From IMG/VR virus record IMGVR_UViG_2579778842_000003: DNA of 64,000 bases; one strand, written 5' to 3'. Both the position numbers and the translations under genes were made by a program. This DNA is from a virus (taxonomy: Duplodnaviria; Heunggongvirae; Uroviricota; Caudoviricetes). Below, in pieces: positions 21,518 through 41,500 of the stretch (the stretch's first letter is position 1; every line of letters begins with the position of its first letter). The notes under the pieces are model-generated. The model made no database searches, was not told where the DNA came from, and was given only the letters and a program-made list of their open reading frames with translations.

Positions 21518-21543
21518 TGGTACCGAGTTCTCTTAAACCAAGG
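21518..21543 (-). promoter_or_regulatory. cix crossover site next to cin
   Basis: Reverse complement caatcctaaaccttggtttaagagaa; the right half is identical to the site at 15793-15818. Confidence 0.65.
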
Positions 21544-21544
21544 T

Positions 21545-22105
21545 TTAGGATTGAAATGATGACGCCGGAAACTTCTTATAAAGCGTGGAAACAGCCACAT
21601 CATAGATGATTGCAACCTGCTTACGGGGGATGCCCTTCTCGAGCAATCGCCGCATTTGCTGCCATGTTTCTTCTTGGTATTTAGGCCGACGTCCACCTAT
21701 ACGACCTTCTGCGCGAGCTGCATCAAGTCCAGCGCGTGTACGTTCAACGATAAGCTCACGTTCCATTTCAGCCAGCGCCCCCATTACGTGAAAGAAAAAG
21801 CGCCCCATTGGTGTACTGGTGTCGATGGAGTCAGTGAGACTCCGGAAGTTAATGCCTCTGTCACGCAGCTCTTCCACCAGCACAACTAAGTGACGCATGC
21901 TGCGCCCAAGACGATCTAACTTCCATACGACTAGGGTGTCACCTCTGGAAAGCATACGGAGAACCTTTTTTAACCCAGGGCGTTCAGCCTTTTTGCCGCT
22001 CGCCTTGTCCTCAAAAATTAGCTCACATCCTGCGCTTTCAAGAGCGTTTCGTTGTAAAGCAGTGTTTTGTTCATTTGTTGATACGCGTACATAGCCTATT
22101 AGCAT
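21545..22105 (-). CDS. cin: Cin serine recombinase (DNA invertase)
   Basis: 186 aa; Hin/Gin-family resolvase-invertase sequence with HTH C-terminus; adjacent to the cix site. Confidence 0.9.
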   Translation of the reverse strand: MLIGYVRVSTNEQNTALQRNALESAGCELIFEDKASGKKAERPGLKKVLRMLSRGDTLVVWKLDRLGRSMRHLVVLVEELRDRGINFRSLTDSIDTSTPMGRFFFHVMGALAEMERELIVERTRAGLDAARAEGRIGGRRPKYQEETWQQMRRLLEKGIPRKQVAIIYDVAVSTLYKKFPASSFQS

Positions 22106-22232
22106 ATTTTCTGCTCACTATCGTTATTTATAGCAAGCTGCGGATTTTAATTAACAAAAACCAGTATGTGTGGAAATCACAAAGTACATACCGTTTCCCA
22201 ATGATATTTAATTCACTATTAAGGAAATAGTT

Positions 22233-22514
22233 ATGTGTGATTTCACAATAATGCTCCTCTCCATCCTTGGCGGGGTGCATTCGTTTCTGAATGGGGTTCG
22301 TGAAAAACGTTACGAAGCGTCATGCAGGCAATTGATGGCCGAGTGTATTGCTGCCGTACTTGCAGGCTTTATAGGCATGTATTTCGCGGAATATAAGGGT
22401 ATGGATGAAAGTCTTCAGAATTGCGTGACTATTATTTGCAGCATCAATAACAGGCTCATTCTTGAAAAGTTACAAAGGATTATCGATTCGCACCTCAATA
22501 GAAATGCCTCTTAA
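22233..22514 (+). CDS. Small membrane protein (possible holin-like LydC)
   Basis: 93 aa with hydrophobic segments; first gene of the lysis/dar operon. Confidence 0.45.
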   Translation: MCDFTIMLLSILGGVHSFLNGVREKRYEASCRQLMAECIAAVLAGFIGMYFAEYKGMDESLQNCVTIICSINNRLILEKLQRIIDSHLNRNAS

Positions 22515-22581
22515 GCAACAAATGACCGGTTGAGAAGTTACTTTGCATACCATTACCTCCTGACAACGTAGGAGGGAACTT

Positions 22582-22911
22582 GTGCTTGACACACAGGAAT
22601 TAGCTCCAGTTGCTATTGCGCTCCTGCTTTCAGTAATTGGTGGGATAGGCACGTTCCTGATGGATGTCCGAGACGGTCGCCAGTCTGGCAATTTGTTAGG
22701 ATTGGTTACGGAGATCTTTGTTGCAGTGACAGCTGGCGCGGTGGCGTACCTATTGGGGCAACACGAGGGCTGGGAGTTATCAATTACGTACTTAATGGTA
22801 ACGATAGCCAGCAATAACGGTCATGAGGTGATTTCAGGGATGAAACGAGTGAATATCGATAGCATTCTGAATGTTCTTACAAGTTTGGTGAAAAAGGGAG
22901 GCGGGAAATGA
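22582..22911 (+). CDS. lydA: Holin LydA
   Basis: 109 aa with two or three TM helices and a charged C-terminus; upstream of lydB. Confidence 0.65.
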   Translation: MLDTQELAPVAIALLLSVIGGIGTFLMDVRDGRQSGNLLGLVTEIFVAVTAGAVAYLLGQHEGWELSITYLMVTIASNNGHEVISGMKRVNIDSILNVLTSLVKKGGGK

Positions 22912-23351
22912 TTGGCTGGGGTGTATGCGTTCTTGCGTTAGCCTTAGCCGATCGCTATTTGCTAAAACGCAAGGACATCACGCACTTAGAACTTGGTGAT
23001 GTGGAAATTAAACCGGGTTTCATCCGGGTGCCGTTCAAATACCGGTCTAAATTCCCGTTTTTGCGCGGCGCAACGGTCAGATATTGGATCCGCGATGTTC
23101 AGAAGCCGACGACAGTGATTGAAGGCGAACAACGTTGTCTGACGTCGGCTGAACAGGGCGAAAACAGTGAATGGTTGTACATACCCACTGAATATATGGG
23201 TAAAGGAGAGCGACTGTGGCATTTCAACGTCATGGTTACGCATGGCGACTCGTTCATTAACCCGTTGTATCGGATTTTCCCTGTTACTCAGCAAATCCGC
23301 AGAAGTTACGTAATAAATCTCGCACAGGATGTGTCAGATGACGAAAAATAA
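22908..23351 (+). CDS. lydB: Antiholin LydB
   Basis: 147 aa as recalled for P1 LydB; overlapping start. Confidence 0.6.
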   Translation: MIGWGVCVLALALADRYLLKRKDITHLELGDVEIKPGFIRVPFKYRSKFPFLRGATVRYWIRDVQKPTTVIEGEQRCLTSAEQGENSEWLYIPTEYMGKGERLWHFNVMVTHGDSFINPLYRIFPVTQQIRRSYVINLAQDVSDDEK

Positions 23352-23940
23352 GTATGCAACGGTCGATTTTGACCAGGTTAATGAAAAGGGGCTGAAATCC
23401 CTTATCGCGGCGATCAATAAAACCGGGGTTACGGTAATTGAGGTTGACTCCAGCAACCGCGCAACAACGAAAGATGGCGTTAAAGTTAAAACCGCAAAGC
23501 TGGTTCTTAACGACGGACAAATTCTTGCCATACAGGTAAACGATACTGGCGATATATCGTCTGTGAAACTGAATGGAAAAGCTATTCCTAACGCTCAGTC
23601 GCCGGATATCAAGACGCTTGGTACCGCCATGGGACAGGCGGCCCGCAAAAACTCCGCAAAATTCCAGAAATCACTGATCGCCAAAGCGAAGCGTGTTGCC
23701 AATCCGGTAGACAAGAAACCGGCAGTTAAATCCAACTTTCAGCGCCTGCAAGAAGCAAAACAGCGGAATGCTCAGGTGGTTGCCGCTTATAAGTCCGCGC
23801 AGAATTCGGTGTCTTTCAATCAACAGCAGATCACTGATTTGCGGGCGAAGCTGGATAAGGAGACGGGCCGACTCAATAACGAAAAGGCACGGAATGGCGA
23901 ACTCAAACGTCGTCTTAAGCAACTGAAAGCAGGAAATTAA
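23329..23940 (+). CDS. hdf: Hdf (homolog of DarA fragment)
   Basis: 203-aa ORF directly upstream of darA; Lys/Ala-rich coiled-coil C-terminus. Confidence 0.55.
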   Translation: MCQMTKNKYATVDFDQVNEKGLKSLIAAINKTGVTVIEVDSSNRATTKDGVKVKTAKLVLNDGQILAIQVNDTGDISSVKLNGKAIPNAQSPDIKTLGTAMGQAARKNSAKFQKSLIAKAKRVANPVDKKPAVKSNFQRLQEAKQRNAQVVAAYKSAQNSVSFNQQQITDLRAKLDKETGRLNNEKARNGELKRRLKQLKAGN

Positions 23941-23941
23941 C

Positions 23942-25861
23942 ATGGAACAGTTCAATATCAATAAAGGGGTGACGCTCAAGCCTGGGCTTGACGTGCTTCC
24001 CCCGCCAGTGACTGATGATGAATATCGCGCATTAATGGCCGGTGAGGACCGCTATCTGATGACGGAATCCAACACCCTGGAGGAAATCGAGGCTACGTTC
24101 TTCTATGACACGCCGATCCACTGGTGTGCTACGGATTTACTGGAGGCGATTAGTTCTACTCGTTTGCAGTTACACCGGACCATGCAGGCATTTGTCCGGG
24201 CATTGAACCAGAAGCTGAATGGTACCGGAATCTCTGCGGGGAGTGATAAAACGGGGGATGTGGCCCAGAGCGGCGCGCGCGCGATCGGCGGCGCTGAAAT
24301 TGGCCGGGCACGTAACGTTAACGGGCTGCCGGTCTTGCCAGCCATTATTCCGCTCAGTGATGGTCAGACTATCAGCATTCTGTTTCATAGCCCGACAGCG
24401 GAAAACCGGATCACCAATAGCGATACGCTGGTTGCTTTCCAGTTCTTACTGAATAAAAAAGACGTTACTCACACCGTTGCTCCGATGAGTGGACGTGATA
24501 TGACGCTGGCGCAGGTCACCATGAAACTTGCCAACCTTGCAGAGAAAAACTCGGCAAAATTCCAGCGTGCGCAGAAGAAGAAAAAAGCCCTTGTTGATGA
24601 AATAACCCAACTACAGGCTGACAGTGACCAGAAAGAGGATGCCATGAGCGACCTCGCGGATCAGGTGGCAGCGGTAGAAGGGCAGAAGGTAGATCTGGAG
24701 CAGAAAATTAACGCTGTTGCATCGGAAGCGGATTCTCTTTATGAAGAGAATGAGCGTTTGCAGACGGAGATTGATCAGCTCAATCGCACAGGTGGGCGCG
24801 ATACCATTGATCCAGCGGGGATGACTGGTGGGCACTCGCGCGCGCTGACGGATCGCCTTGCAAGTATCAAAAATCGTATGCATATGAACGGGGAAGTGAC
24901 GCTCAGTAATGGTGCATCAATGAAGCAATTCATTGAGGACGGTGAAGGGTATATCCAGTTAACCGATTCGGATGGCAGCGTGTACATGATCAAGGCTAAA
25001 TCCATACAGGGTGTGGACATGGCAGATGCGATCGGCAAGCTGTTTAAAGCCTATAAAGCGGGTAATGTATCGGAATACCTGGTCCAACCAGAAGAACATA
25101 AACCGGAAAACGTCGAACCTGAACCAGCGGAGGATACCGGTAGCTCTTCGCCTGAACCAGAAGTCTCTATAGGTGCATATCGATATGCCCTGCAAATGCG
25201 TCCGGCGGCCCCTGGCGCAATACCTGAAGGTAACAAAGCAATTCTGCCGCGCCCTGATGAAGGTGACCCGTATTATGAATATGCACGCTACGGCATTGCT
25301 ACTTACGATACCCCGCTTTCTGATCAGCAAATGAGTGAGTACGACCTGAAGTTATTGCCTCGCGAGGATTCTTTCGACTTCCTGGCGAAGACACTTACTA
25401 ATGGTCCGTTTGGCAAATATGCACAAAAAGCTCTGGAGCTGGCCACCAGCTCACCAGACGAGTTCCGCGTAATGCTGAAAACTCAGTTTCAAAAAACTTT
25501 CCCCAATATTGCGTTTCCGGGGGGCGCTGGCACCGAGAAAATGGTGCAGAGCATGATCAATGCATTGCAGGCCGAAGTCGGTGAGATTACTCAGCCAGAA
25601 CCTGTCCCGGCACAGCCTGATGAAACGGTTAGCGAAGCAGATGCAGAGGCTAATAAAGCCATTGAATATCTCAATAACGTGATGGATATGCAAAGCACTG
25701 ACATGGCGGAGATCCGTAACGCCCGGGGTAATGTCCGGGAAGCGATTGCAGTCCTTCAGGCTGCCGGGCGTTTTGAGGAAAACGAAGAGCTGGTTAATGG
25801 CGCTGCTCGCCACCTGGCTGATCTGCTGGTAGCAATCCAGAAAGCGGGGGTAGCGGCATGA
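23942..25861 (+). CDS. darA: DarA, virion anti-restriction protein
   Basis: 639 aa, matching P1 DarA; position in the dar operon. Confidence 0.75.
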   Translation: MEQFNINKGVTLKPGLDVLPPPVTDDEYRALMAGEDRYLMTESNTLEEIEATFFYDTPIHWCATDLLEAISSTRLQLHRTMQAFVRALNQKLNGTGISAGSDKTGDVAQSGARAIGGAEIGRARNVNGLPVLPAIIPLSDGQTISILFHSPTAENRITNSDTLVAFQFLLNKKDVTHTVAPMSGRDMTLAQVTMKLANLAEKNSAKFQRAQKKKKALVDEITQLQADSDQKEDAMSDLADQVAAVEGQKVDLEQKINAVASEADSLYEENERLQTEIDQLNRTGGRDTIDPAGMTGGHSRALTDRLASIKNRMHMNGEVTLSNGASMKQFIEDGEGYIQLTDSDGSVYMIKAKSIQGVDMADAIGKLFKAYKAGNVSEYLVQPEEHKPENVEPEPAEDTGSSSPEPEVSIGAYRYALQMRPAAPGAIPEGNKAILPRPDEGDPYYEYARYGIATYDTPLSDQQMSEYDLKLLPREDSFDFLAKTLTNGPFGKYAQKALELATSSPDEFRVMLKTQFQKTFPNIAFPGGAGTEKMVQSMINALQAEVGEITQPEPVPAQPDETVSEADAEANKAIEYLNNVMDMQSTDMAEIRNARGNVREAIAVLQAAGRFEENEELVNGAARHLADLLVAIQKAGVAA

Positions 25862-26223
25862 CACTATCAGCTATTGAGTTAATGGATCTCAGCGATAAGT
25901 TGGATGCTCTGATGTCCAAAGCGGCTACCGCGAGTGGCATGGAGTTGCTGGATATCAGCGATGAAATTGACCAGATCATGCAACAGATGGGGTACGGAGC
26001 GTCCGGCGGCAGTAGTGGCGAGGAAAAACAACCTTCGGTACATGATGGTGTGCCAAAACTGGTTGCTGATTTCCTGGCTGATAAATTCGTCGATCAGAGC
26101 ACAGATGCATTTATCGGTACCTTGCAGGACTTGAGTCAATATGTTGGCACATACATCGACCTGGACCAGGTTAAACAGCACACGGCGGCATGGATAGCCG
26201 CCAACATTAAAGAGGCAGCATAA
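25858..26223 (+). CDS. ddrA: DdrA
   Basis: 121 aa; overlapping start; synteny. Confidence 0.6.
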   Translation: MTLSAIELMDLSDKLDALMSKAATASGMELLDISDEIDQIMQQMGYGASGGSSGEEKQPSVHDGVPKLVADFLADKFVDQSTDAFIGTLQDLSQYVGTYIDLDQVKQHTAAWIAANIKEAA

Positions 26224-26235
26224 GGCGTAACAGGG

Positions 26236-29223
26236 ATGAGCTTAAGCGATCAGGTGGTAATGGCCACCAGCATAGAAACGCTGATCGAGCTGCTAAAGAA
26301 CCTGCCCGATTATGGGCGGGTTTCGTATGTGGTGACAGCGAAGGGAGACGAGGTAAAAACAGCGTTTGATATCGTCGATGCCTCAGCTCTTTTGGTATCC
26401 AATACTCTGGATGGGAAAATTAATCCAGACTATCCCCAGGAACTTCAGCCGCGCGACCGGACCCGCGCATCCAGCCTTCTTCAGGTCAACCAGATATCCA
26501 AGGATTTGCGTCCTGCCCAGCTTACCGATTCCGGTTTATCCAGCCATGGCGCGCCAATAATTGGTGAGGACAATGCCGTTGAGTCAGGTAATGGGCGGAC
26601 CATGGGGATCATTAAAGCCTATCAGGACGGTAATGCGGATCGGTATCGGGAGTACCTGATTGAACATGCGACCGAATTCGGCATACGGCCTGAAAAGGTT
26701 GAATCAATGACGGCTCCGGTACTGGTGCGCCGCCGGTTAACGAAGGTTGACCGTGTTCAGTTTGCCAAGGACTCAAATATTTCTGATCTCCAGGAAATGG
26801 CAGCCAGTGAAAAGGCTTTTGTTGATGCCGACAGCATAACACCGGCGATGATGGCGTTGTTTAACCCGTCAGAAAGCGGAGATCTGCTTAGCCGCAGTAA
26901 TGACGCGTTTATTCGCGGATTCATGACGCAAGTTGGTGCCACACAGGCTGCTGGCCTTGTAACGGAAGATGGGCGACCAACACGGCAACTTGTAGACCGT
27001 ATACAAAACGCGATCTTTGCCAAGGCATATAAGGATGCGCGCCTGGTAAGGATGGTTGCAGAAGAACCTGATCCGGATATGCGTAATGTTCTGACGGCGC
27101 TTAATGCGGCAGCCAATGATTTTGTCCAGATGCAGGCTTTATCAGGAGAAGCGCACAAGCAGGCTGTGACAACTATTGTTGATGGTATTGAGACAGCGGA
27201 TAGTCTCGATAAAAAGGCGCTGGCGGCATTGAAAGATGCGGTAGACCTGGTAAGGCAATCGAAGGAGTCAGGCCAACATATTACCGATGTTATTGCTCAG
27301 GGGGATATGTTCAGCGAAACAGCCCCGGAAGTGAAAGCTCTCGCGTTGTTCATCGTCGCGAATAACCGTAGCGCGAAGCGTATGGCCACCGCCTTTAAAT
27401 TGATGGCTCAACGTATCAATGATGAGTTACAGCACCAGGGCCAGGCGCTGGGGGATATGTTTGGCGGTGGTGATGTGTCGTTACAGGATATCCTTCGCCA
27501 GGTGTCTCAGGAACTGGAAAACGAAGGCATGCAAGGGATATCCGGCGGTCTTTTCGAGTCCGTTTCCGGCGGTAGTTACAACGGTGTTGCTCCATATACC
27601 AGCTTGCTATTACATCGGGCATCCGGCATCAAAGACATTATTCATCTGATCAGGCTGCTTTCCCGTACAGATCCCCAGGATGAACAGCTTGTACAAGTGC
27701 TTGCGCATTTTGTTCGAATGCCTGTTGCCGACGTGAATAAATGGTGCCGATTATTCGGTATCAGCAATTCGTTACTTCGCGGATTGTTAAATCACGCATC
27801 CTCCCTTGGGCGCGACGGCTTTGATGAGATAGCGCAGGCGATAAAAAACGGAGATATGCCACCAGCTATTGACTGGTTTTCCATTCGCCCAACCAGGGTG
27901 AAAGCATTCCTTAGAGCGGCGCAATCAGCATCACCATTGGCAGAAATGGTTCAGAGGTTATCGCTCATATTCACAGACCATACCGCGTTGGGTGATCTGA
28001 CTCTGGACGAGATGAAAGAAGCCTCCATTCAGTGGGCCGATCAACAAAATGAGGTTAACTCAGACTTCTTGCCAGCATTCAGGAAGGCCGTTAGTAAAGC
28101 GGATGATGCCCGTGAAATTCTGAAGGCATTTAAGGCATTGCAAAGTCGTGTTAATAAACATGTCGGTGATATCGATGGGGTAACGGCGGAAGGCCGGGAT
28201 ATCCTTAAAGAGCACGGCATAACGCCAGAGTTTATTGATGAGATCAGGACTGATATGCAGCGTGAGGTCGTATCGTCCCTGCAAATCGTAGCCAGAGCGT
28301 TGGCGGATGCTAATCCGAAGAGTGCGGCCATTGTTAACCGGGTTATTGGTGATATTGAAGCATCGGAGGGCATGGGGGCGCTGAAACTCTTCCTTTCGCG
28401 AGCGTTTAATCCTAACGGCAATATTCTCCCTGGCATTATTGGTGAGGCTAAAAAGTATGTCAGTGAAGAAGAACTTGAGCAGCTTGACCAACTACTTAAG
28501 CGATTCTCATATAACCCGCAGACACGCTGGCAAATGAATCAGCGAAGTATGGGTTCGGTCCACGAGAAAGTGTTATCTGCCATGAACAGTGCGATCGCAA
28601 ACTCATCCGTATCTGAAGAAAAAGCTCTTGAGTGGGCCGACTCTTTTATCACAGAAGAAGTGGAAGAAGCCCGCGCTGGACAGAATGGTGGGATAGACCT
28701 GCGCAAGGAACTTGCTGATATTTATCGCCTGACTGGCGGGAAAATATCGACCTTATCAAAGGTAGTTCACCACCAGGGAAGGGCATATGCAAATCTAAAT
28801 GGTGTTGTTGCTGTCAATTTGAACGATGAAAATGCAAGTGCACTGTGGCACGAGCTGGGTCATCATCTTGAGTACAGTAACCCTGGTTTGTTAGAGAAAG
28901 CCCGGTCATTCCTGAAGGCCAATGTTGAAGGGGATAAGCCATCTTTCGTCAATATCGGTGGGCGTGGCAAGCCTGAATGGTGCTTCAGATCTCGATTGAG
29001 TAATATTTATATGGCGAAGGTATACCCGCCAGCCTCAGTAAGTAACACCGGGAAAATTCGGCAGAAATCACCGACTATTTCCAAAACGTCAGCAACGGAA
29101 GTATTCTCTATGGCTCTTCAGTTGTATCATGACAAAGAGGCCGCTGCCGCATCACTGATGAATGGTGACGGATTGCTGGAACTGTTATTAGGTGTGGCAA
29201 AGGAGCTAAATAATGCAGATTAA
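26236..29223 (+). CDS. ddrB: DdrB, large dar-operon protein
   Basis: 995 aa; synteny with P1 ddrB. Confidence 0.65.
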   Translation: MSLSDQVVMATSIETLIELLKNLPDYGRVSYVVTAKGDEVKTAFDIVDASALLVSNTLDGKINPDYPQELQPRDRTRASSLLQVNQISKDLRPAQLTDSGLSSHGAPIIGEDNAVESGNGRTMGIIKAYQDGNADRYREYLIEHATEFGIRPEKVESMTAPVLVRRRLTKVDRVQFAKDSNISDLQEMAASEKAFVDADSITPAMMALFNPSESGDLLSRSNDAFIRGFMTQVGATQAAGLVTEDGRPTRQLVDRIQNAIFAKAYKDARLVRMVAEEPDPDMRNVLTALNAAANDFVQMQALSGEAHKQAVTTIVDGIETADSLDKKALAALKDAVDLVRQSKESGQHITDVIAQGDMFSETAPEVKALALFIVANNRSAKRMATAFKLMAQRINDELQHQGQALGDMFGGGDVSLQDILRQVSQELENEGMQGISGGLFESVSGGSYNGVAPYTSLLLHRASGIKDIIHLIRLLSRTDPQDEQLVQVLAHFVRMPVADVNKWCRLFGISNSLLRGLLNHASSLGRDGFDEIAQAIKNGDMPPAIDWFSIRPTRVKAFLRAAQSASPLAEMVQRLSLIFTDHTALGDLTLDEMKEASIQWADQQNEVNSDFLPAFRKAVSKADDAREILKAFKALQSRVNKHVGDIDGVTAEGRDILKEHGITPEFIDEIRTDMQREVVSSLQIVARALADANPKSAAIVNRVIGDIEASEGMGALKLFLSRAFNPNGNILPGIIGEAKKYVSEEELEQLDQLLKRFSYNPQTRWQMNQRSMGSVHEKVLSAMNSAIANSSVSEEKALEWADSFITEEVEEARAGQNGGIDLRKELADIYRLTGGKISTLSKVVHHQGRAYANLNGVVAVNLNDENASALWHELGHHLEYSNPGLLEKARSFLKANVEGDKPSFVNIGGRGKPEWCFRSRLSNIYMAKVYPPASVSNTGKIRQKSPTISKTSATEVFSMALQLYHDKEAAAASLMNGDGLLELLLGVAKELNNAD

Positions 29224-29521
29224 AATCGCAGCGCCATTAGGTGGAGATGCCATTATCGAATTTGATGATAATGAAGAAGTTTCCGGGCGTTTAAGCATTA
29301 TCTCCGGTGACATTACCGAGGACATGATCGCTGAAGCCATAGCTGGGGCAAATCCCAATAGCTATATGGGATTCGTTAACACCCTTGATGCTCCCGCAAG
29401 TGATGTTCTCCGAACGCTGCATCTTTACGCTGGCTGGTTTGTTGATTGGCCAGCAGTAGATGGTGGCGATGAGGACGACGACGATGATTTTGGTGATCAT
29501 GTAGACCAGATCGTATATTGA
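29213..29521 (+). CDS. Small acidic protein (hxr position)
   Basis: 102 aa with a poly-Asp C-terminus; last gene before the convergent terminator. Confidence 0.5.
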   Translation: MQIKIAAPLGGDAIIEFDDNEEVSGRLSIISGDITEDMIAEAIAGANPNSYMGFVNTLDAPASDVLRTLHLYAGWFVDWPAVDGGDEDDDDDFGDHVDQIVY

Positions 29522-29523
29522 AG

Positions 29524-29552
29524 AAATCCCGCCAATCGGCGGGATTTTTTTT
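29524..29552. terminator. Bidirectional intrinsic terminator
   Basis: aaatcccgcc-aat-cggcgggattt followed by a T8 run; lies between convergent genes. Confidence 0.75.
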
Positions 29553-30339
29553 AATCGCTTTCCACTTCTTCCGTGGTGTTTTCTTGCAGTTCTGTTAATG
29601 CAGCACGACATAGGTTCCGGGCATTGGCTATAGCCACACTTTTGACTTCATCCGTCATCGTGCAGGTAATGTACTGATCGAGTTCTTCAGCGCGGATGAT
29701 GCTTTTGCCAATCAGAAACTGTATTTGCCAGAGCAGATCGGCATCCATAATCAGAATTTCTGCCGGGCCTTCAGGGCCAGCCGGGAAGGAAACATAAGAC
29801 TGTTTGCCCAGGCCGATAACTCGACAACTTGCTTCAAGAATTGCGCGCTTGAGGTCTGACTTTGTAACTGAAACAGGTTGATTTTCACCTGCGATTACGC
29901 CGTTGACATGGATGTGGAAGGGCATGTAGCTTGAAATTCGCTCTACTTTCCATACGCCAGCAAGCGATCCTTCATGCAGCACAATGGGGGTAACCGCGAG
30001 TTTCATCTCACCATATAACTGCTGGCAGATGGCTGGATTGCTGAATACATCCAAAGGTTCACACTCAAACAGCGGCGCAATCTGCATGAGGTCCATCATG
30101 GTCATACCAGGGGTACGAGCAGTAATGAATCTGCGCATGCCAGTATCCATTGTGCGCCAGATAGCTACACCATGCTTTTTGCTCACTTCTTCAGTAAAGC
30201 CAAGCTGGCACATGATGGTTTTTTCGATAGCCAGATCAGAGATAGAAACCTTTTCGCCAGGTACACCATCATTATTGATGGTCACTTCGACACTCTGGCC
30301 ATTACGCAGGCGGTATTGAATTGCTTTAGTATTTTCCAC
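29551..30339 (-). CDS. Hypothetical protein
   Basis: 262 aa; second gene of a two-gene minus-strand operon downstream of ssb. Confidence 0.55.
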   Translation of the reverse strand: MENTKAIQYRLRNGQSVEVTINNDGVPGEKVSISDLAIEKTIMCQLGFTEEVSKKHGVAIWRTMDTGMRRFITARTPGMTMMDLMQIAPLFECEPLDVFSNPAICQQLYGEMKLAVTPIVLHEGSLAGVWKVERISSYMPFHIHVNGVIAGENQPVSVTKSDLKRAILEASCRVIGLGKQSYVSFPAGPEGPAEILIMDADLLWQIQFLIGKSIIRAEELDQYITCTMTDEVKSVAIANARNLCRAALTELQENTTEEVESD

Positions 30340-30345
30340 GTTAAA

Positions 30346-31023
30346 TCACTCCACTACAAACCAGTCACATGCCAGTAAGTCGCATACAGAAGGCACCCAC
30401 GGAACAACTACACCTTGTGCATTTTTTAAGGCGAAATAAGCACCATACGGAACGAGGTCGCCGGGGAAATATCCCTTAATGGCTTCCATTCGTGCCGGGT
30501 ACTGTCCTTCAGGAACCAGCCAGCAGAATTGGTTTTCGCCGTTCCACCCGCGTCGAGCAACTTTCTTGCCATCCTTCAGCCACATCAGCGCGTCAGAAAA
30601 GTCGGCTGCTTCAAGGTCGATTTCTTCTTGTGTGGTAATGATGCCACTGGCAGCAATAGTTACGTCCCTGGCTGTAATGAATGCCACCCCATTGTGACCT
30701 TCAATACTGAGCGATACCCCATTTTCGAAGAAGTCGTTAGTCCGACTAAAGCCTTCTTCAAATGTTTTTTCTGGTGAATAGGACAGAGATCCGTCCTCAT
30801 AAGCGACCAGATATCCGCCAATTTCTGGTCGGTGTTTTTGCAAAAACATTTTATCAACATGGACTTTTACCCCTTCTGGCTCAACGACTTCGATGTTGCA
30901 AAAAAGGACCACATCCATTAGGGCGATAATTTCGATATCTTTGATTTTTGAGGCGCAAACTGTTTTATGGCTTTTGTATTTTGGAAGTGCCGTCAAAAGC
31001 TCTTTCGTTGTCATGTTATTCAT
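30346..31023 (-). CDS. Hypothetical protein with C-terminal DUF2829-like (Tad2-like) motif
   Basis: Start taken at MNNMTTKELL with an AGGA RBS (track ORF extends to 31143). The C-terminus FSDALMWLKDGKKVARRGWNGENQF...VPWVP resembles the DUF2829 signature as I recall it. Confidence 0.55.
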   Translation of the reverse strand: MNNMTTKELLTALPKYKSHKTVCASKIKDIEIIALMDVVLFCNIEVVEPEGVKVHVDKMFLQKHRPEIGGYLVAYEDGSLSYSPEKTFEEGFSRTNDFFENGVSLSIEGHNGVAFITARDVTIAASGIITTQEEIDLEAADFSDALMWLKDGKKVARRGWNGENQFCWLVPEGQYPARMEAIKGYFPGDLVPYGAYFALKNAQGVVVPWVPSVCDLLACDWFVVE

Positions 31024-31220
31024 AGTCTTTCCTCTGCTTAAAACCTGATGTATTGCGCCTTCAGGTGGGTCAGGAATGTTTTCCCACCAGCGAAAGCAAT
31101 ATCTCGGGGTGTTCTTTTCGTGAAAAGCGCGTGCCATTGCCAACTTTGGCGTTTTTTAGCGAGTTCGTGCTTTTGTTGGCGTTTGGACCACCGCTTTTCT
31201 TTCAGTCGTTTTTTACACAT

Positions 31221-31709
31221 TCAAAACGGAATATCGTCGTCAAAGTCCATTGGAGGTTCGTTATTGGCGTTGCTCTGAGGTTTACCGCCACCGCTGTATT
31301 GCTGGTGGTTTTGAGGTTGGTTTGATTGCCCCCAGCCATTTGAGGACTGTGAATCGTCACGGCGAGCGCCGATCATTTGCATGGTGCCGCCCTGGCTGAC
31401 GATAATTTCCGTCGTGTAACGTTCTACACCGGCGTCATCTGTCCACTTACGGGTTTTAAGTTTCCCTTCGATGTAGACCTGAGAACCTTTTCGTAAATAC
31501 TCACTCGCAATTTCAGCAAGTTTTCCGAACAAAACGACTTTATGCCATTCTGTTTGCTCTTTCTGTTGGCCCGTTTGCTTGTCGCGCCATGATTCATTCG
31601 TTGCGATGCTGAGTCTTCCGACCGCGCCGCCATTTGGTATATACCTGATCTCCGGGTCTTGCCCCAGGGTACCAATCAGGATGACTTTGTTTACACCGCG
31701 TTGTGCCAC
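31221..31709 (-). CDS. ssb: Single-stranded DNA-binding protein
   Basis: 162 aa; OB-fold SSB N-terminus, Gly/Gln-rich linker and acidic tail DFDDDIPF. Confidence 0.9.
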
Positions 31710-31728
31710 TTATCTTACCTAATAAAAT

Positions 31729-31745
31729 AAATTAATTAGAGCAAT
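31729..31745 (-). promoter_or_regulatory. C1 operator upstream of ssb
   Basis: aaattaattagagcaat, 15/17 to the operator consensus. Confidence 0.55.
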
Positions 31746-31877
31746 AATGTATATCTTTGAAACGTAGCTAACAAGTGATTTGCATTATCCTGTGTCTTCT
31801 AAAGGGATCGAGTCAGTCGGTATTGGCTGTGAATGGGTGTTTGTCCTGGAGCGTAAAAATTCGCTTATGAGGTCTTT

Positions 31878-32435
31878 ATGAAGGGAAAAACAGCCGCAGG
31901 AGGCGGTGCAATTTGCGCTATCGCGGTGATGATTACCATCGTGATGGGTAATGGCAATGTGCGAACCAACCAGGCGGGGCTTGAGCTTATCGGAAACGCT
32001 GAAGGTTGCCGACGTGACCCATACATGTGCCCGGCGGGTGTATGGACTGACGGGATTGGTAATACACACGGGGTAACGCCAGGCGTGCGAAAAACCGACC
32101 AGCAAATCGCCGCTGATTGGGAAAAGAATATCCTGATCGCTGAACGCTGTATTAATCAGCACTTCCGGGGCAAAGACATGCCCGATAATGCCTTCAGTGC
32201 AATGACAAGCGCGGCATTCAATATGGGATGCAATAGCTTACGGACCTACTACAGCAAAGCGCGAGGCATGCGAGTAGAAACGTCCATCCACAAGTGGGCG
32301 CAGAAAGGGGAATGGGTGAATATGTGTAACCATCTCCCTGATTTCGTGAACAGTAACGGCGTGCCCCTGCGAGGTTTAAAGATTCGCCGTGAAAAAGAAC
32401 GCCAGCTTTGCCTGACGGGACTGGTCAATGAATAA
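31878..32435 (+). CDS. lyz: Endolysin (T4-lysozyme-like with N-terminal SAR/TM segment)
   Basis: 185 aa; hydrophobic N-terminus AGGGAICAIAVMITIVM followed by lysozyme-like GNAEGCRRDPYMCPAGVWTDGIGNTHG. Confidence 0.8.
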   Translation: MKGKTAAGGGAICAIAVMITIVMGNGNVRTNQAGLELIGNAEGCRRDPYMCPAGVWTDGIGNTHGVTPGVRKTDQQIAADWEKNILIAERCINQHFRGKDMPDNAFSAMTSAAFNMGCNSLRTYYSKARGMRVETSIHKWAQKGEWVNMCNHLPDFVNSNGVPLRGLKIRREKERQLCLTGLVNE

Positions 32436-32682
32436 ACTCCGGCAGCTCCGCCGACTTTCGACAATGAAGTTATCGCTGGCGGCGATAGTTTTTGACTCGA
32501 TTTTCATGGCGGTATATGTGCTCAATGAGACGTGGCCACTGGAACCGCTATTGTATGCCGGGCTTCGGCTGTGCCTGACATTTTTGAGCATGGCTGCAAG
32601 ATTGATGCAGCAGAAAGAAACCGCTTCAGATTGCCCACGTCGCGCGGTGCGCAAATATATGGCACGCAGACGAAGGCGATAA
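32428..32682 (+). CDS. Small membrane protein overlapping the lyz stop
   Basis: 84 aa, TM segment, Arg-rich C-terminus; followed by a terminator. Confidence 0.4.
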   Translation: MNKLRQLRRLSTMKLSLAAIVFDSIFMAVYVLNETWPLEPLLYAGLRLCLTFLSMAARLMQQKETASDCPRRAVRKYMARRRRR

Positions 32683-32693
32683 TAGTTAACGAT

Positions 32694-32721
32694 AACCCCG
32701 GCAGCCGCCGGGGTTATTTTT
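32694..32721. terminator. Bidirectional intrinsic terminator
   Basis: aaccccggc-agcc-gccggggtt plus a T-run, between convergent genes. Confidence 0.7.
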
Positions 32722-32726
32722 GATGG

Positions 32727-35457
<2,731 letters not shown>

Positions 35458-35523
35458 TTAATTAGAATAATTCGCATCGTGTTTGAACGGAATTTAACAC
35501 TAGTCACTTGTTAAGGATTACCA

Positions 35524-38500
35524 ATGAACAAGCTATCTATTGGGGTGTTTCGCTGTTCAAGTGTCAGCGAAATATTGAAATACATTAGGGCAATAACATC
35601 TCACCGAGCGCCGATTAAATACGGCGTGGAAAAGGTGGAAGGCAAAAGCTATGACCGACTGCGCCGGGAGGCGAATCAGAAGGCGATAGATTTGCTTAAT
35701 TCACTGGTGGACAGCGCGACACTGACAGATGAACAGCGCCAGATCCTGGCTGGGTACACCGGTGAAGGCGGCATTGGCGGGTCCGTCTCCGAATATTACA
35801 CACCAAAGCCGATCGCTGAAGGTGTCTGGGAGATCATGAAGCTCTACGGCGCGGACGTAGGTAACACTCTGGAACCATCGGCGGGCACCGGCGTTTTTAA
35901 TGAGACAAAACCGGTTGGTACGGTGATGACTGCGACTGAGATCAGCAGTGTTTCCGGTCGTATAAACCAGTTGTTACACCCGGAAGACAGCGTACAGATT
36001 TCCCCGTTCGAACAGCTGGCTATAAGCACACCTAACGATTCATTCGACCATGTTGTGGGTAACGTTCCGTTCGGCGGTCGTGATAACACACGCAACATCG
36101 ATAAGCCTTACGCAGAAGAAACGGACATGGGTTCTTACTTCATGCTCCGCATGCTGGACAAGATAAAGCCAGGCGGATTCATGTGCGTGATTGTGCCGCC
36201 GTCCATTGTTTCAGGTTCAAACATGAAGCGGTTACGCCTGCGCCTATCACGGAAAGCAGAATTTCTTGGTGCCCACCGCTTGCCTACCGGTACTTTTGAC
36301 GCAAACGGGACCAGTACGGTCGTAGATGTGGTGCTGATGCGCAAACATCCGGCAGAGATGGCTGAGAAAATCCCCCTGGTGGATGAAAGCACTCTTGAAT
36401 CAGCAAATGTGCTTTGGCCAACGTTTATTTCTGGCAAGTGGTTTGAAAAGGATGGCCGCCGGTTTGTTCATGGCACCCAAGAAAAGGGCTTCCGGGGGCG
36501 TATTGAGGTTCGTGCCGACGGTCAGATTGATAACCAGGCTCTTAAAGCGAAGCTGATTCATCGTTTCGAAAGCCGTATCGACTGGTCTTTGCTCGATATG
36601 GCTGAACCGTCACCGACCGCAGACGTTGTTGGTGAAGGGGAAATGCGCCTGATTAATGGCGTATGGCAAAAATATGCTGGTGGTCGCTGGATTGAAGCTG
36701 ATGCCGGGAAGGAACTTAAGATCGATGCTGCCAGTTATGGCGCGGATAGCTGGGAGGCTCTTCAGCGTAACCTGACTACAACAGAAGGCCGTCTCGGTAT
36801 GACATTTACCCAGATGGCAAATGTCCGCGATAAGTACACCACATCAATCAGCGACGATATGGTGCAGCTGGTGGACTGGATTAACAGCCAGCCTGAAAAA
36901 TACCGTGAACGCTTGTATCGCGGGGCGATGATTGGCCGGATGTTAATTGAATATCAGGATATGAAGGCCGCCGGGCATAGTGCTGAACAAATCGAACAGC
37001 AGCGCCTTTCTCTGGTATCCCGTTTGCAGGCAGAGATTGACCGTTTTGGTAACCCCGGTCGCGGTCCGATAGCGAAATTATCGGGGAGCGGTGCGCGCGC
37101 CTGGTTTGCTTTCCGTGGTGCAATTAAGCTGGATGGCACTATTTCTGACGAGCTGACAGGAAAACTGGTTACGCATGATTCCAGCGCCAGTTATGACTCC
37201 ACCAGCTATCAGGACACCCTGCGTTATCTCTACAGTGATCTCACTCGCGATCCAATCCAGCTCGATGATTTCCGCCTTGCGTTTACCGGCGAACTGCCAG
37301 CCAGTGATGATGAGTTGCTTAATTTATTGGCCAGCACCCCTGGCATTGCGGTTTCACCGTATGGCGGGATTGTTCCGTTCGCCCGCGCCACCAGCGGCGA
37401 CATTAACGAGATAGTGGCTCCAAAACAGGAATTCCTCGCCACGCTCCCCGACGGTCCAGTAAAGAACAACGTCCTTAATCAGCTGGCAGCGATCGAAGAG
37501 AAGCGCATCAAGACGCCAGCAGAGAATATCCGCTTTAAGCTCAATAGCCGTTGGTTCGACCGTTCCGTCATTCTGGAGTTTTTGCAGGAAAACGGCTATC
37601 CGGATCTGCGCTATGTGCAGTCAGTGCAGCTGGAAGGCGACGAAATGGTTTCTGACACCTATCACGGTGGTGATGGCCTGTTCGTCGGGCACCGATACGG
37701 TGTCGTCCAGCGCAAGGATAAAGAAACAGGCGAGATCCGCTACGAGTGGGACCGTAAATCAGGAGAAAACGCGACCGGGTTCCCGGCACAGCTGGAAAAG
37801 TATCTCAATGGTGCGCGTATCGGTGGCAAAGATAGCGCGACGGCGAACGGCTATCGTGAGCAGATGGCACTGCTTGAGGACCAGTTCAATAAGTGGATCA
37901 AGACGCACGATCGCTACGATGAGCTGGTTGCCAAATACAACGATGTGTTCAATAGCAATATCCCGTATGAACACTCTGGCGATCCGCTTGGGTTGAAGGG
38001 ATTAAGCGGTAAGCGCCAGCCATTTGATTACCAGAATAGCGAGGTGCGCCGACTGTCCGAAGATGGGCGCGGCATCCTGGGCTTCGGTACCGGGCTGGGT
38101 AAAACCACGACCGCGCTGGCGCTTGAGACGTTCAACTATGAGAACGGTCGCTCCACCCGTACTGCTTATGTAGTGCCTAAATCAGTGCTGGAAAACTGGT
38201 ATTACGAAGCAAAAGAATTCCTGAGTGAAGAGGCATTCAGTAACTACCTGTTCGTCGGTCTTGATGTGCTGATGGATGGCGATCAGATTCGCCAGGTGCC
38301 GGTGCTCGATGAGAACGGTAAACCTGTTCTTGGTACTGATGGCACTCCAGTTATGCGCGATGCTCTTAAGCTGGCAGATGAAGCCACTATCACAGCGCGG
38401 ATGAACGCGATCCCGCACTCAAACTACCGTGCAGTCGTGTTTACCAAAGAACAATACGCCCGCATTCCGCTACGTGATGACACCGTAGATGAGCATGCAC

Positions 38501-41500
38501 AAGACATGCTTTATGACTTCGTTGCCGCCGGGCGCGTAGCCAGCGCAATGGATTCCGACTCCCATCGTAAAGAGGCGGCGCGTCGCTGGGTATTGTCGGA
38601 GTATTCAGATACCGGTACCGAAAAAGCAGAGAAGTATCCGTACTTTGAGGATATGGGCTTCGATAGTGTGATCGCCGACGAAGGTCACAACTACCGCAAT
38701 AGCTATAAAAATGGTCGCGAAGCGTCACAACTGGCCTATCTGCCCACCAGCGCGGTGGCGCAATCGGCGCGGGATATGGCAATCAAAAACGCGTACCTGA
38801 TGAAAAAGAATGGCGGGCGCGGGCCGGTTCTCCTGACTGCAACGCCAGTCGTTAACACCCCGATCGATGCATACAACATGCTTTCTCATGTTCTGCCGAA
38901 GGAATACTGGCAGAAGATGGGGATCTACGGTCCTGATGACTTCGTTAAATTCTTCGGCAAGACCAGGCTGGAAACGGTACAGAAAATCAGCGGTGAAGTT
39001 GAAGAAAAAATGGCGCTGGTGGGCTTTGAAAACCTTGATGCGCTGCGCGGTATATTCCATCGCTGGGTAACGCTTAAAACGGCGGAAGACGTTAAGGATA
39101 CCGTGGAGATCCCGGAACTGGACGAACACCAGCAGGATGCACCACTTACTGAAGAACAACTGGCGGCGTATGAAGAATTGCGTCAGCAGGCGGAAGCGGC
39201 GGCCAAAGCCAACAATGGTGTAACGACCTCGGTCAATGAAGACGGCGTGATTGAGCACGAGAAAGCCCGTCCGATCTTCTCAATAATCAGGGATATGGAC
39301 CGCGTATGTACTGACATGGACCTGTACTATCGCCGGATCACCTATCGTTTCCTGCCGGAGTACGCCGATGCGGTGCAGCAGCTGGCGGACAGTTTGCCTA
39401 AACAAGCCACCAGCGAAGACGACGACAGTGATGATTCAATCACGCAGCAATCGCAATACTCCCTGATAGATAAGGGCGAGTTTATTCAGTTGCAGGTTCC
39501 GGAAGCGTTCGAGCAGGAAGTGAATAAGCGCCTGGCCAGGTTTGGCATTGACGAACAGACCGTAACTCACCCCGTTACGCCGAAATACGCGAAGCTGATC
39601 GCCACGCTGAAGGAGTTTTTCCCGGAAGGGAAGCAAATCATCTTCACCGACGAAAAAACGCAGCACCAGAAGCTCAAGCGCATTATCTGCAATGCTCTTA
39701 ACCTTGAACCTTCAAAGGTAGGGATCCTGAATGCTCAGACTGTTGCCGAGGCAGGTAAAACCGGTAAGAAACTGAAAGCGGTTAAACCGCCGAAAGAGTT
39801 ACCGGATGAACCAACAGATGCACAGATAGCGAAATACAACGAGCAAATGGCTCTGTATGACGCCTATATCGCGCAGCAAAATGAAATGTCGTTGGGCGGT
39901 CTGGAAAAGATTGCAGCCGACTTCCAGGAGGGCCGGACTCCGATCATCATCTGCAACAAAAAGGCAGAGGTGGGTATCAACCTGCATCGAGGAACGACTG
40001 ACATCCATCATCTGACGTTGCCATGGACACCAGCCAGTATCGCACAGCGTAACGGTCGCGGTGCTCGAGTTGGCTCCAACCGTGCAAGCGTTCGCGTTCA
40101 CTACTACTGCGGCAAGGGGTCTTTCGATGAATACCGATTGAAGACGCTGAAGCGTAAAGCAGGCTGGATCTCCGATATCCTCCGTTCAGATAAGTCGGAA
40201 ATGGAGAACGCCGACGCCAATGACATGATCGAAATGCAGATGTATACCGCGAAGGATGACGGCGAACGTCTGGCAATGATGCAGGTTCAAATGGATAAGG
40301 CGAAAGCTGCGAAACGCGCTCGCCAGAAAGAACAGGCTACTATCGACCTTCAGAATTACATCAAGGCGCAGCACGCAGCTGGCGAGGATGTGGAGGTACT
40401 TACCGCTGAATTAGAGCGAAGCAAAGCGGAACTTGAAAAGACCACCGCCGAGGTAGCTAAATTCAAACAGGCGGTAATGGCCAAAGCAGCTGATAACGCA
40501 GACTGGAAAGCCCGCTGGGGTAGCGTCCATCACACAGACCGTACGTTGTTAGCACAGTATCGCGCGTCGTTGAAAAGCGCCATTCAGCGCAAGGCTAATA
40601 TCTCTCAGGCCATCTCCCGCTATGAGAAATTATTGAACCGTACTCAGAAGGCCGCGACGGATATCAAACGCCTGCGCCCGCTGGTGGAGGATGCAATAAA
40701 TAAAGGCATTCTGGATGTTGATCCTGATCTGGTTAACCATGCGAATGAGTTCCTTGTTATCGGCGATCGCTCATGGCGTGTAGGCCAATACTACGATTGT
40801 GCCGGTGATATCGTTCGCATTAAGTCGCTGGACTTCGACAGCCAGCGCGCAGACGTGGAGATCATCTTTACCTTAAGAGGCACCAAATCGGGTAACTGGG
40901 ATGTGAAGACGCTGGATAAACAGGTGGATGTAACTCCCGATGAAGATGCTGTTATGCAGAAAATCAGTGGTGGCGTCTCCATCGCCGGGATTAACGACAT
41001 CATTTCCTGTGACGATTTCTACCGTTTCCAGCAGCGCGGCATGATCAAAATCACTGACTCGTACGGCGTTCAGACTACAGAGTCAGGCTATAGCATTGAT
41101 TTTGTTGGTACCTATACGGACCCACTGAAGCATGCGGTTTACCCGGATCGCCGTGACGGCGCGCTGAAGTCGTCAATTGCAAAATGGGTGCTTGGTATGA
41201 TGTCGGAAGGGAATAACCGCCAGATCCGTTCGGCAGAAACATTCCTGGTTGAATTGTTTGGCTCCAATTATGGCGATGTAATCGCGTCATACGGAGATAC
41301 GCTATCCCCTGAAGCAATTCAGGAGAAAATAGCGGATGCGATCGCCAGAATGCCGGAAAAAACAAGCCAGGGGTCTACTCGTAACGGGGATTCTGAACTT
41401 GAAGTCACCAATGCCATTTTCGGTACCAATGAGTTCCGGGCGTCAGATTATGAGATCACCACAGCACAGTTTGGCACCATTGGCATTTACAGCAATAAAG

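Follow-up and report, generated by a model that had tools for sequence, protein, structure and literature searches.

A Tad2 domain fused to an N-terminal OB-fold domain

The 225-aa product of a gene in the window (the whole 64,000-nt stretch of viral DNA analysed here) ends in a true DUF2829/Tad2 family domain, and the full-length protein is probably an anti-defence "sponge" that a P1-like phage-plasmid expresses early. The results given below establish its domain identity, its fold, the conservation of its pocket, and the gene arrangement. The protein, referred to as OB-Tad2, also holds an N-terminal OB-fold domain, and its gene lies between ssb and a homologue of P1 isaA:

30346..31023, − strand: OB-Tad2 gene, 225 aa plus stop (PGAP: DUF2829 domain-containing protein, WP_001376910.1 family)
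30739..30990, − strand: N-terminal OB-fold domain (residues 12–95), possibly Dec-like, belonging to an unnamed family associated with sponges
30616..30738, − strand: variable linker (residues 96–136), pLDDT <50 for residues 96–136, differing in length and sequence between homologues
30349..30615, − strand: Tad2-like domain (residues 137–225) with the conserved ADPR-type pocket residues W160, N161, G162, W209, S212, and D215
29551..30339, − strand: isaA homologue, 262 aa, GTG start
31221..31709, − strand: ssb, single-stranded DNA-binding protein, 162-aa ORF, probable first gene of the operon
31024..31220, − strand: ssb/OB-Tad2 spacer, 197 nt, with the ribosome-binding site GAGGAAAG at 31027..31034
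31729..31745, − strand: C1 operator-like site 5′ of ssb (equivalent of P1 Ossb/Op21), one mismatch to ATTGCTCTAATAAATTT
29524..29547, either strand: bidirectional terminator-like hairpin between the convergent isaA and hxr
30336..31019, − strand: 684-bp segment missing in reference P1, a gene-sized indel exactly equal to the OB-Tad2 ORF

Both open reading frames lie on the − strand where the first-pass annotation had placed them (29551..30339, and 30346..31143 or 31023 depending on the start), and the C-terminal peptide that it quoted matches the 225-aa product exactly. The real start of OB-Tad2 is almost certainly the ATG at 31023, because the ribosome-binding site GAGGAAAG lies 3 nt 5′ of it, PGAP calls a 225-aa protein in a 98%-identical plasmid, and homologues begin with MNNM. 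The longer starts, namely the TTG at 31143 and that of the 281-aa annotation in SJ46, were ruled out, as the upstream extension is interrupted in the window and corresponds to a leader shared with P1, and as both PGAP and the homologues begin at the 31023 ATG.

Residues 141–224 matched PF11195 ("Tad2-like") over profile positions 2–73 of 73 (Pfam; E=4.3e-23, 82 bits, cutoff 25). This match is far above chance and falls in the region (140–225) for which the family had been suspected. Among PDB sequences, phmmer returned ModTad2 (9eib, E=7e-20), AcrIIA7/HgmTad2 (E=2e-10), and SPO1 Tad2 (E=4e-9), and the matches cover four experimentally characterised Tad2 sponges. In the model comparison, the predicted fold of the C-terminal domain agreed with the solved Tad2 structures. 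The proposal of the first-pass annotation that a larger protein carries a C-terminal DUF2829/Tad2 domain was therefore borne out by profile, fold, and pocket residues. Tad2 proteins are typically single domains of ~90–100 aa; OB-Tad2, at 225 aa, is longer by the N-terminal domain and the linker. An HMM search of all six frames found no second Tad2 copy in the window.

Mutations in HgmTad2 have targeted the gcADPR-contact residues W21/N22 and S90/T92/D93 (10.1101/2023.11.15.567273), which align with W160/N161 and S212/C214/D215 of OB-Tad2. Equivalents of the full HgmTad2 pocket set (W21, N22, G23, W87, S90, and D93) are all present, as W160, N161, G162, W209, S212, and D215. Among 39 homologues, W160, W209, S212, and D215 were invariant and G162 nearly so. 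N161 and C214 varied: the former is K in some P1-like alleles, and the position of the latter, T92 in HgmTad2, is occupied by G in most homologues. HgmTad2/AcrIIA7 and SPO1 Tad2 (PDB 8KBI-8KBM, 8SME-8SMG) share the fold and the gcADPR-contact residues with the window protein at a lower identity to its domain (31–39%). In contrast to HgmTad2, the window protein lacks the long insertion that binds cGG/cGAMP, and the HgmTad2 contacts R31, S47, and N85 are not conserved.

By sequence comparison, the nearest characterised relative of the domain is ModTad2 (MoTad2) from a Myroides odoratus prophage (PDB 9EIB, 8V3E), a single-domain protein of 89 aa that binds His-ADPR of type II Thoeris and, in a second pocket, cUMP/cCMP. 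Unlike ModTad2, the window domain makes up the C-terminal 40% of a 225-aa protein, and several variable pocket residues differ. The insertion region is of the ModTad2 type, with V170, P171, G173, Y175, and Y193 corresponding to ModTad2 V35, P36, G38, Y40, and Y57, respectively; N201, V205, V207, V210, and C214 differ from ModTad2 T65, D69, A71, T74, and S78. Because these variable positions are unlike those of ModTad2, no ligand was assigned to the window protein. The pocket-forming insertion occurs in at least three alleles among P1-like plasmids (PEGQYPARMEAIKGYFPGD; PDKQGASRLTPIKHA.NGELEINFDSP; LAGSVNLH.GI).

Gene arrangement in the window and in reference P1

The ssb gene, an annotation shared by SJ46, P1, and the E. 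coli plasmid CH427, is located 197 nt upstream of OB-Tad2 on the same strand. The window contains nine C1-type sites, compared to 0.4 expected by chance, as scored with ATTGCTCTAATAAATTT, which we take to be the C1 operator consensus. At the place equivalent to the site 5′ of ssb, the P1 annotation has the C1-controlled operator Ossb and the promoters P1ssb/P2ssb. Neither a sigma-70-like promoter nor a terminator was found on the − strand of the 197-nt spacer. Because the C1 operator lies 5′ of ssb and this spacer holds no such element, ssb, OB-Tad2, and isaA most likely form one C1-repressed early operon. The earlier description of a two-gene operon beside ssb thus stands with respect to adjacency to ssb and the 262-aa gene, but the unit more likely comprises three genes. 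Within it, isaA is predicted to be translationally coupled to the OB-Tad2 gene: the two are 6 nt apart, and the Shine-Dalgarno sequence of isaA is located inside the end of OB-Tad2 (GGAGTGA TTTAAC GTG). The hairpin that follows isaA has a 10-bp GC-rich stem with U/A runs on its flanks, and its folding energy is −17.1 kcal/mol on the − strand and −21.6 kcal/mol on the + strand (z-scores −3.5 and −4.9). No Rfam family reached the threshold in the ssb/OB-Tad2 spacer, and a structured RNA there was rejected, as the weak Rfam hits merely reflect the terminator hairpin.

Comparison of the window with P1 by blastn gave alignments at 31020..31800 (98.8% identity) and 29551..30335 (95.7%) and none between them. 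Reference P1 lacks OB-Tad2 through an exact, gene-sized indel of 684 bp. In P1, isaA directly follows ssb and is itself followed by IS1 and isaB, and the leader and ATG that precede OB-Tad2 in the window serve isaA. The P1 IsaA annotation has ~56 additional N-terminal residues, which correspond to untranslated leader in the window. The 262-aa product is 96% identical to residues 60–320 of P1 IsaA (YP_006486) and belongs to phrog_2326, a group of unknown function. The first-pass annotation had allowed that the two genes might be P1 backbone genes with an established, unrelated function; this was not the case, as the 262-aa gene is P1 isaA, which has no known function. The IsaA homologue had no match in Pfam, PDB sequences, PADLOC, or NCBIfam. 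Its AF2 model, built from a shallow 7-sequence alignment, had a mean pLDDT of 53, and Foldseek found nothing in the PDB below E=0.2.

The OB-Tad2/isaA pair is conserved, with a spacing of 6–7 nt, at two distinct genome positions: it follows ssb in P1-type elements, and in D6-type elements it comes behind dUTPase, close to the integrase. Between the two types, IsaA is 48% identical. Fusions of dUTPase and Tad2 also exist. N4-like phages have an anti-signalling hotspot in which a sponge gene lies next to ssb and genes of unknown function come after it (10.64898/2026.06.04.730250), and the layout of the window, where the putative sponge gene adjoins ssb, parallels this hotspot.

The N-terminal domain belongs to a sponge-associated OB family

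The N-terminal domain (residues 12–95) is a predicted OB-fold that may resemble the Dec protein of phage L (PDB 6E3C), with which it shares a motif around GGYL...FE.xY at marginal similarity. It has no Pfam or NCBIfam model, and no match to PF13876, PF21825, or PF24729 was obtained in Pfam at E<=1. A word-index search with this domain yielded only fragments of the same gene, and the family was therefore counted in an exhaustive HMMER search, where ~2,450 clusters (50% identity) matched the OB-domain family HMM. Half of the 137 matches inspected are stand-alone proteins of ~90 aa. The domain is also fused repeatedly to Tad2, Acb4, Sequestin, Acb2/Tad1 (hairpin), and Lockin domains. The signature of the family is P-x-Y-x-C-H-K-x-V-x-A-x-K-I ... 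K-H-x-P-x-x-G-G-Y-x-V-x-Y-x-D-G-Y-x-S-x-S-P-x-x-F-E-x-G-Y, with the conserved polar residues H19, K20, K63, H64, D77, S81, and S83, and this polar signature is absent from Dec.

Two known families were considered for this domain and rejected. Its GGYLV.Y and S.SP..FE motifs resembled one protein of the Sequestin table, which suggested a divergent Acb4, but hhalign gave a probability of 0.2%. Lockin was ruled out because the domain is unrelated to the LockinA sequence (Tal et al. Table S4). TadIV-1 (T4 vs.3) is confined to T-even phages.

Fused multi-sponge proteins are experimentally established for Acb4-Tad2 and Tad2-Sequestin (10.1101/2025.07.12.664507). In Acb4-Tad2 (Pasteurella phage Pm86), Tad2-Sequestin, and Acb4-Sequestin (phage Ab09), as in the window protein, a linker joins a second small phage domain; unlike in these proteins, the partner domain in the window is outside the recognised sponge families. 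RyR-Tad (gp68 of Pectobacterium phage vB_PatP_CB1) has the same layout as OB-Tad2, in which an N-domain with no known function precedes the sponge at the C-terminus, but this sponge is a RyR Repeat12-like domain and not Tad2. The N-domain of RyR-Tad is a shorter variant of the OB domain, matching the OB-family HMM at both signature motifs (32 bits), and it has been reported as inactive against type I Thoeris when alone.

Tad2 proteins with a 6E3C-like domain were left out of the 84-protein screen of Hadary et al., where about one quarter of the tested sponge homologues had no detected target. The part of their supplementary tables that was searched contained no P1-like sequences, and we found no published test of any OB-Tad2 protein in the literature. 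Sequestin was found through the same "guilt by fusion" reasoning that can be applied here. We tentatively propose that the OB domain defines a large, overlooked phage family and might itself be an anti-signalling module, which would turn the P1-like protein into a dual inhibitor; we consider this possible rather than probable. Such a module may be a new sponge or a small signal-modifying enzyme, acting on a signal outside those assayed so far; alternatively, the family may be a general accessory needed by sponges in vivo.

Proposed function and alternative explanations

We infer the ligand, oligomer, expression timing, and any activity of OB-Tad2 as follows. The Tad2 domain would assemble into the homotetramer of its family, and the conserved inter-subunit pocket would sequester TIR-derived ADPR-type alarm molecules, while a second pocket like that of ModTad2 may take up cyclic nucleotides. 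Sequestration of these signals would keep Thoeris-type, and possibly Pycsar or CBASS, effectors of the host switched off. The gene would be co-transcribed with its neighbours ssb and isaA from the ssb promoter, which C1 represses, and the protein would appear upon prophage induction or entry into a new cell. The OB domain would act as a separate module on a flexible linker and would most likely bind a second ligand or counter signalling in some other way.

The possible resemblance to Dec raises the alternative that OB-Tad2 is a virion decoration protein, with the OB domain bound to the capsid as in phage L and the Tad2-like part serving as a displayed or oligomerising appendage without a sponge role. 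We consider this highly improbable. Dec is a late structural protein with a C-terminal trimer spike, whereas in OB-Tad2 the Tad2 domain stands in place of the spike and the gene most likely belongs to the C1-controlled ssb early unit, not to a late morphogenetic operon. Moreover, reference P1 builds virions without OB-Tad2, the homologues in phages Dolphis and SopranoGao are located among small early genes and not capsid genes, and the recurring fusion partners of the OB family are cytoplasmic sponge domains. Scarcely more probable is a non-immune role of the Tad2-like domain, in which it would bind a nucleotide or metabolite in connection with the DNA metabolism of ssb/dUTPase, or an anti-CRISPR role of the AcrIIA7 type. 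The position after dUTPase in D6-type elements and the dUTPase-Tad2 fusions are in line with the former, but every characterised member of the Tad2 family is an immune-signal sponge, and the residues of the immune-ligand pocket are invariant or almost so. As for the latter, E. coli is not known to have type II CRISPR-Cas; the domain entered the literature under the name AcrIIA7, yet the anti-Cas9 activity of AcrIIA7/HgmTad2 was not reproducible (10.1101/2023.11.15.567273).

A further explanation, unlikely but the most plausible of the alternatives, is that OB-Tad2 and IsaA form a two-component unit, with IsaA as effector or partner and the sponge as accessory, comparable to Bes1/Bes2 beside Acb4-Sequestin in N4-like phages (10.64898/2026.06.04.730250). 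The maintenance of the tightly coupled pair at two genome positions, despite divergence of IsaA to 48% identity, is consistent with such a unit, as is the N4-like parallel. However, P1 retains IsaA without the Tad2 gene, Tad2 proteins act alone in all tested cases, and neither domain nor fold searches found a match for IsaA.

The first-pass annotation had also suggested an offence/defence pairing with a SIR2 gene of the same element. This pairing found no support, as the targets of Tad2 are signals produced by TIR proteins and not SIR2 enzymes, and the SIR2 protein of the element lacks detectable Thoeris signalling parts. The 435-aa SIR2 protein (43057..44364) matched only SIR2_2 (residues 117–252) and the SIR2 part of the ThsA, Dsr, and PDC-S25 models. 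Neither Pfam nor PADLOC returned a match for the neighbouring 222-aa protein, and a scan for TIR, which covered these two proteins, found none. A Thoeris system combines a TIR signal producer with a SIR2 effector that carries a SLOG or Macro sensor, and this combination was not found in the two proteins.

Distribution and significance

The Tad2 call adds little by itself, since it is not new: PGAP names the gene "DUF2829 domain-containing protein", and a DefenseFinder survey recorded Tad2 in 56% of P1-group and 93% of D6-group phage-plasmids (bioRxiv 10.1101/2025.09.12.675607). The added value lies in the N-terminal OB domain, which is abundant, fused to sponges, conserved at polar positions, without a family model, and filtered from the one large functional screen in which it could have been tested. 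Should the domain prove to bind or modify a signal, a widespread family would join the counter-immunity repertoire of phages, and new immune messengers could also be sought with it as bait, in the way that ModTad2 led to His-ADPR. Clinical E. coli, Shigella, and Salmonella commonly carry P1-like phage-plasmids, and P1 is a standard tool of genetics; the clean indel in reference P1 offers an isogenic test bed for whether the sponge alters host range or helps the plasmid to establish itself in the face of Thoeris-type immunity.

The OB-Tad2 gene was present in 213 of 5,426 complete E. coli genomes, nearly always on plasmids. It is accessory in character, being an indel in P1, plasmid-borne, and represented by several insertion alleles. 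Close relatives of the window Tad2 domain, with 78–84% identity, are found joined to Sequestin in contigs of ~90 kb, as is typical of phage-plasmids.

Gene boundaries and the C-terminal Tad2-family domain

The window is a P1-like phage-plasmid. Across 20000..42000 it shares 98.4% identity with a 98.8-kb E. coli plasmid; related DNA was found in 774 of 5,426 complete E. coli genomes, nearly always plasmid-borne. The P1 gene order darA, ddrA, ddrB, hxr, followed by ssb, lyz, pro, prt and darB, is kept. Both reading frames under study lie on the minus strand where the first-pass annotation had placed them, and the C-terminal peptide quoted there matches the 225-aa product exactly:

30346..31023, minus strand: OB-Tad2 ORF, 225 aa counted from ATG
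29551..30339, minus strand: isaA ORF, 262 aa, GTG start

Upstream of the ATG at 31023 lies GAGGAAAG, PGAP predicts the same 225-aa product in a near-identical plasmid, and every full-length homologue begins with MNNM. A longer ORF from a TTG codon was therefore ruled out as an over-extension, as was, on the same evidence, the 281-aa annotation in phage SJ46.

The proposed DUF2829/Tad2-like C-terminus was borne out by Pfam, where PF11195 (Tad2-like, formerly DUF2829) matched residues 141–224 over the whole profile (E=4.3e-23; 82 bits, cutoff 25). Comparison with PDB sequences by phmmer returned ModTad2 (9EIB, E=7e-20), HgmTad2/AcrIIA7 (2e-10), SPO1 Tad2 (4e-9) and SptTad2 (3e-8). Structure prediction with AlphaFold2, using 39 homologues as input, likewise gave a confident Tad2 domain (pLDDT 70–92). 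As had been suggested, this domain is part of a larger protein, in which it follows an OB domain and a linker.

In HgmTad2, gcADPR is contacted by W21/N22 and S90/T92/D93, and mutating these residues abolishes binding (10.1101/2023.11.15.567273). They correspond to W160/N161 and S212/C214/D215 of the window protein, where G162 and W209 are likewise kept. Across the 39 homologues, whose alignment omits M1 and is hence numbered one lower than the protein, W160, W209, S212 and D215 never change and G162 rarely does; some P1-like alleles carry Lys in place of N161. Tad2-family membership is supported by profile, fold and pocket residues, and the first-pass observation is confirmed. The most likely function is a predicted sponge activity, which we consider fairly probable.

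Second pocket and ligand

The β2–β5 insertion forms a second pocket, which binds cyclic dinucleotides in HgmTad2 (10.1101/2023.11.15.567273) and, according to prediction, cUMP in MoTad2. ModTad2 is a sponge for His-ADPR, the signal of type II Thoeris, and leaves type I Thoeris unblocked; its other ligands are cUMP/cCMP, and it blocks Pycsar as well. The window insertion is similar in length to that of ModTad2, with V170, P171, G173, Y175 and Y193 identical, but several variable pocket positions differ, so that the ligand is not assignable from sequence.

The homologue alignment contains at least three sharply distinct alleles of the insertion (aa ~168–196): PEGQYPARMEAIKGYFPGD; PDKQGASRLTPIKHA.NGELEINFDSP; and LAGSVNLH.GI. 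The P1-like plasmids carrying them are otherwise alike. Because this allele-variable insertion forms the second pocket in HgmTad2 and MoTad2, the alleles suggest that the ligand range may have diversified.

The N-terminal OB domain

Residues 1–95 form a confident beta-barrel in the AlphaFold2 model (pLDDT 85–94), connected to the Tad2 domain by a variable, low-confidence linker (residues 96–136). Searched exhaustively with HMMER, 1.84 billion cluster representatives yielded 2,448 clusters with the OB domain at E≤1e-3. Among the best 137 representatives, 67 were stand-alone (~85–100 aa), 56 C-terminally extended and 13 N-terminally extended, and the recurring Pfam families in the extensions were sponge families only:

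Acb4 (PF13876): 4 representatives, either domain order
Sequestin (PF21825): 3 representatives
Acb2/Tad1 hairpin (PF24729): 2 representatives
Tad2: 1 representative

The literature supplied two further fusions, an OB + Acb4 + Lockin triple fusion in Table S4 of Tal et al. and RyR-Tad gp68, discussed below. The OB domain itself was rejected as an Acb4 (hhalign, 0.2%) and, by comparison with Lockin, as a Lockin. Conservation of its polar residues is unusually high (H19 97%, K20 99%, K63 89%, H64 94%, D77 94%, S81 100%, S83 97%, E89 95%).

Fusion to known sponges predicted the new sponge family Sequestin (Tal et al., 10.1101/2025.07.12.664507), and the same logic makes the OB family a candidate anti-signalling module. 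We hold this reading as tentative and rather unlikely, because of one negative result and the resemblance to Dec, the phage L capsid decoration protein (6E3C). The negative result concerns RyR-Tad gp68 of Pectobacterium phage CB1, whose N-terminal domain matches the OB HMM with both signature motifs (32 bits); its authors described this domain as a functionally unassigned fold that frequently makes up an ORF by itself and is inactive on its own against type I Thoeris. In phages Dolphis and SopranoGao, as well as in two phage contigs from metagenomes, OB homologues lie among small early-type genes, not capsid modules. Hadary et al. screened 84 proteins functionally but explicitly left out Tad2 proteins with an extra 6E3C-like domain, which places the OB-Tad2 architecture outside those data.

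The OB-domain protein gp96 of Dolphis (3495..3989 of the locus; also in phage Jeremy) is annotated 'capsid decoration protein', a label probably transferred from weak Dec similarity. Small hypothetical genes of early type surround its gene, which adjoins a DNA methyltransferase gene.

Expression and the SIR2 pair

With the P1 C1 operator consensus, nine matches with ≤3 mismatches were found in the window (2606, 4267, 31729, 35578, 47947, 48030, 48494, 52767 and 63969), against 0.4 expected by chance; they would fit a complete P1-type immunity circuit. One lies immediately upstream of ssb:

31729..31745, minus strand: C1-operator match

P1 is annotated at the equivalent position with the C1-controlled operator Ossb and two ssb promoters. 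The minus strand of the 197-nt ssb–Tad2 spacer contained no sigma-70-like promoter and no terminator, the Tad2 stop codon and the Shine-Dalgarno sequence of isaA overlap, and a strong bidirectional hairpin lies 3' of isaA. From this arrangement we infer that ssb, OB-Tad2 and isaA would form one early operon, repressed in the plasmid prophage. The two-gene operon proposed beside ssb is more likely a unit of three genes.

The SIR2 defence gene that the first-pass annotation set against the Tad2 domain is present, together with a partner:

43057..44364, minus strand: SIR2_2-domain protein, 435 aa, PF13289 E=1e-23
44421..45089, minus strand: partner, 222 aa, without family match

The pair lies between lxc and ref, roughly at the P1 res/mod position. 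The best PADLOC models for the SIR2_2 protein were PDC-S25 and the SIR2 part of ThsA, with weak Dsr1/Dsr2 matches. Neither protein contained a SLOG, Macro or TIR domain, and the pair is probably a defence cassette without Thoeris signalling parts. The suggested offence/defence pairing is not indicated, since the targets of Tad2 are signals made by TIR proteins, and SIR2 enzymes are not among them.

Prior record

The OB-Tad2 gene or a close DNA relative occurs in 213 of 5,426 complete E. coli genomes, and every E. coli record inspected carries the RefSeq label "DUF2829 domain-containing protein". A DefenseFinder survey of phage-plasmids reported "Tad2 AcrIIA7 (anti-Thoeris)" in 93% of the D6 group and 56% of the P1 group (2025 preprint, 10.1101/2025.09.12.675607); functional tests of these proteins were not found in the literature. 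The finding is thus largely known at annotation level. Three points go beyond public annotation: the two-domain architecture, whose OB domain is uncharacterised, widespread and associated with sponges; a clean presence/absence polymorphism between the window and P1; and the allelic diversification of the second pocket.

IsaA, the P1 indel and module mobility

The 262-aa neighbour, correctly reported as an unknown protein, is orthologous to P1 IsaA, itself uncharacterised (96% identity to P1 aa 60–320). Its sole family match was phrog_2326; family, solved-relative and fold searches gave nothing further. Reference P1 (NC_005856) lacks the Tad2 gene, while the flanks 31020..31800 (98.8%) and 29551..30335 (95.7%) align to it:

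30336..31019, minus strand: 684-bp segment missing from P1, exactly the OB-Tad2 ORF

In P1, the shared leader, ribosome-binding site and ATG run straight into isaA (ATG ACA GCA CAA AAT ACT AAA..., MTAQNTK...), and the P1 IsaA annotation (320 aa, GTG start, 5001..5963 of the P1 locus) therefore probably starts ~56 codons early. P1 also carries IS1 and isaB downstream of isaA, whereas the window has neither.

The OB-Tad2/IsaA pair recurs at two positions. In P1-type elements (the window and one relative) it follows ssb, and in two D6-type elements it follows a dUTPase gene close to the integrase. IsaA at the dUTPase position is only 48% identical, but its first 14 residues are unchanged and the spacing is 6–7 nt. 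The pair thus moves as a module, though IsaA also exists without the Tad2 gene.

D6-type elements carry a 164-aa dUTPase gene directly upstream of a 216-aa OB-Tad2 gene (L009, 1992..3151). In the matching neighbourhood of L004 (4001..4726) lies a 241-aa 'dUTPase-Tad2' fusion, which looks like a deletion product that lost the OB domain and joined the two genes. A 364-aa gene, which some phage records call 'terminase large subunit', overlaps the isaA end in some relatives (P1-type L008, 3990..5084; L004, 5490..6584); the window lacks this gene, and its isaA directly precedes the terminator and hxr. A 90.7-kb metagenomic contig encodes a Tad2-Sequestin fusion (4001..4576) next to a Ref-like nuclease gene and a HigB/HTH toxin-antitoxin pair. 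Its Tad2 domain is 84% identical to that of the window, and the same Tad2 domain has therefore recombined with different partners in related elements.
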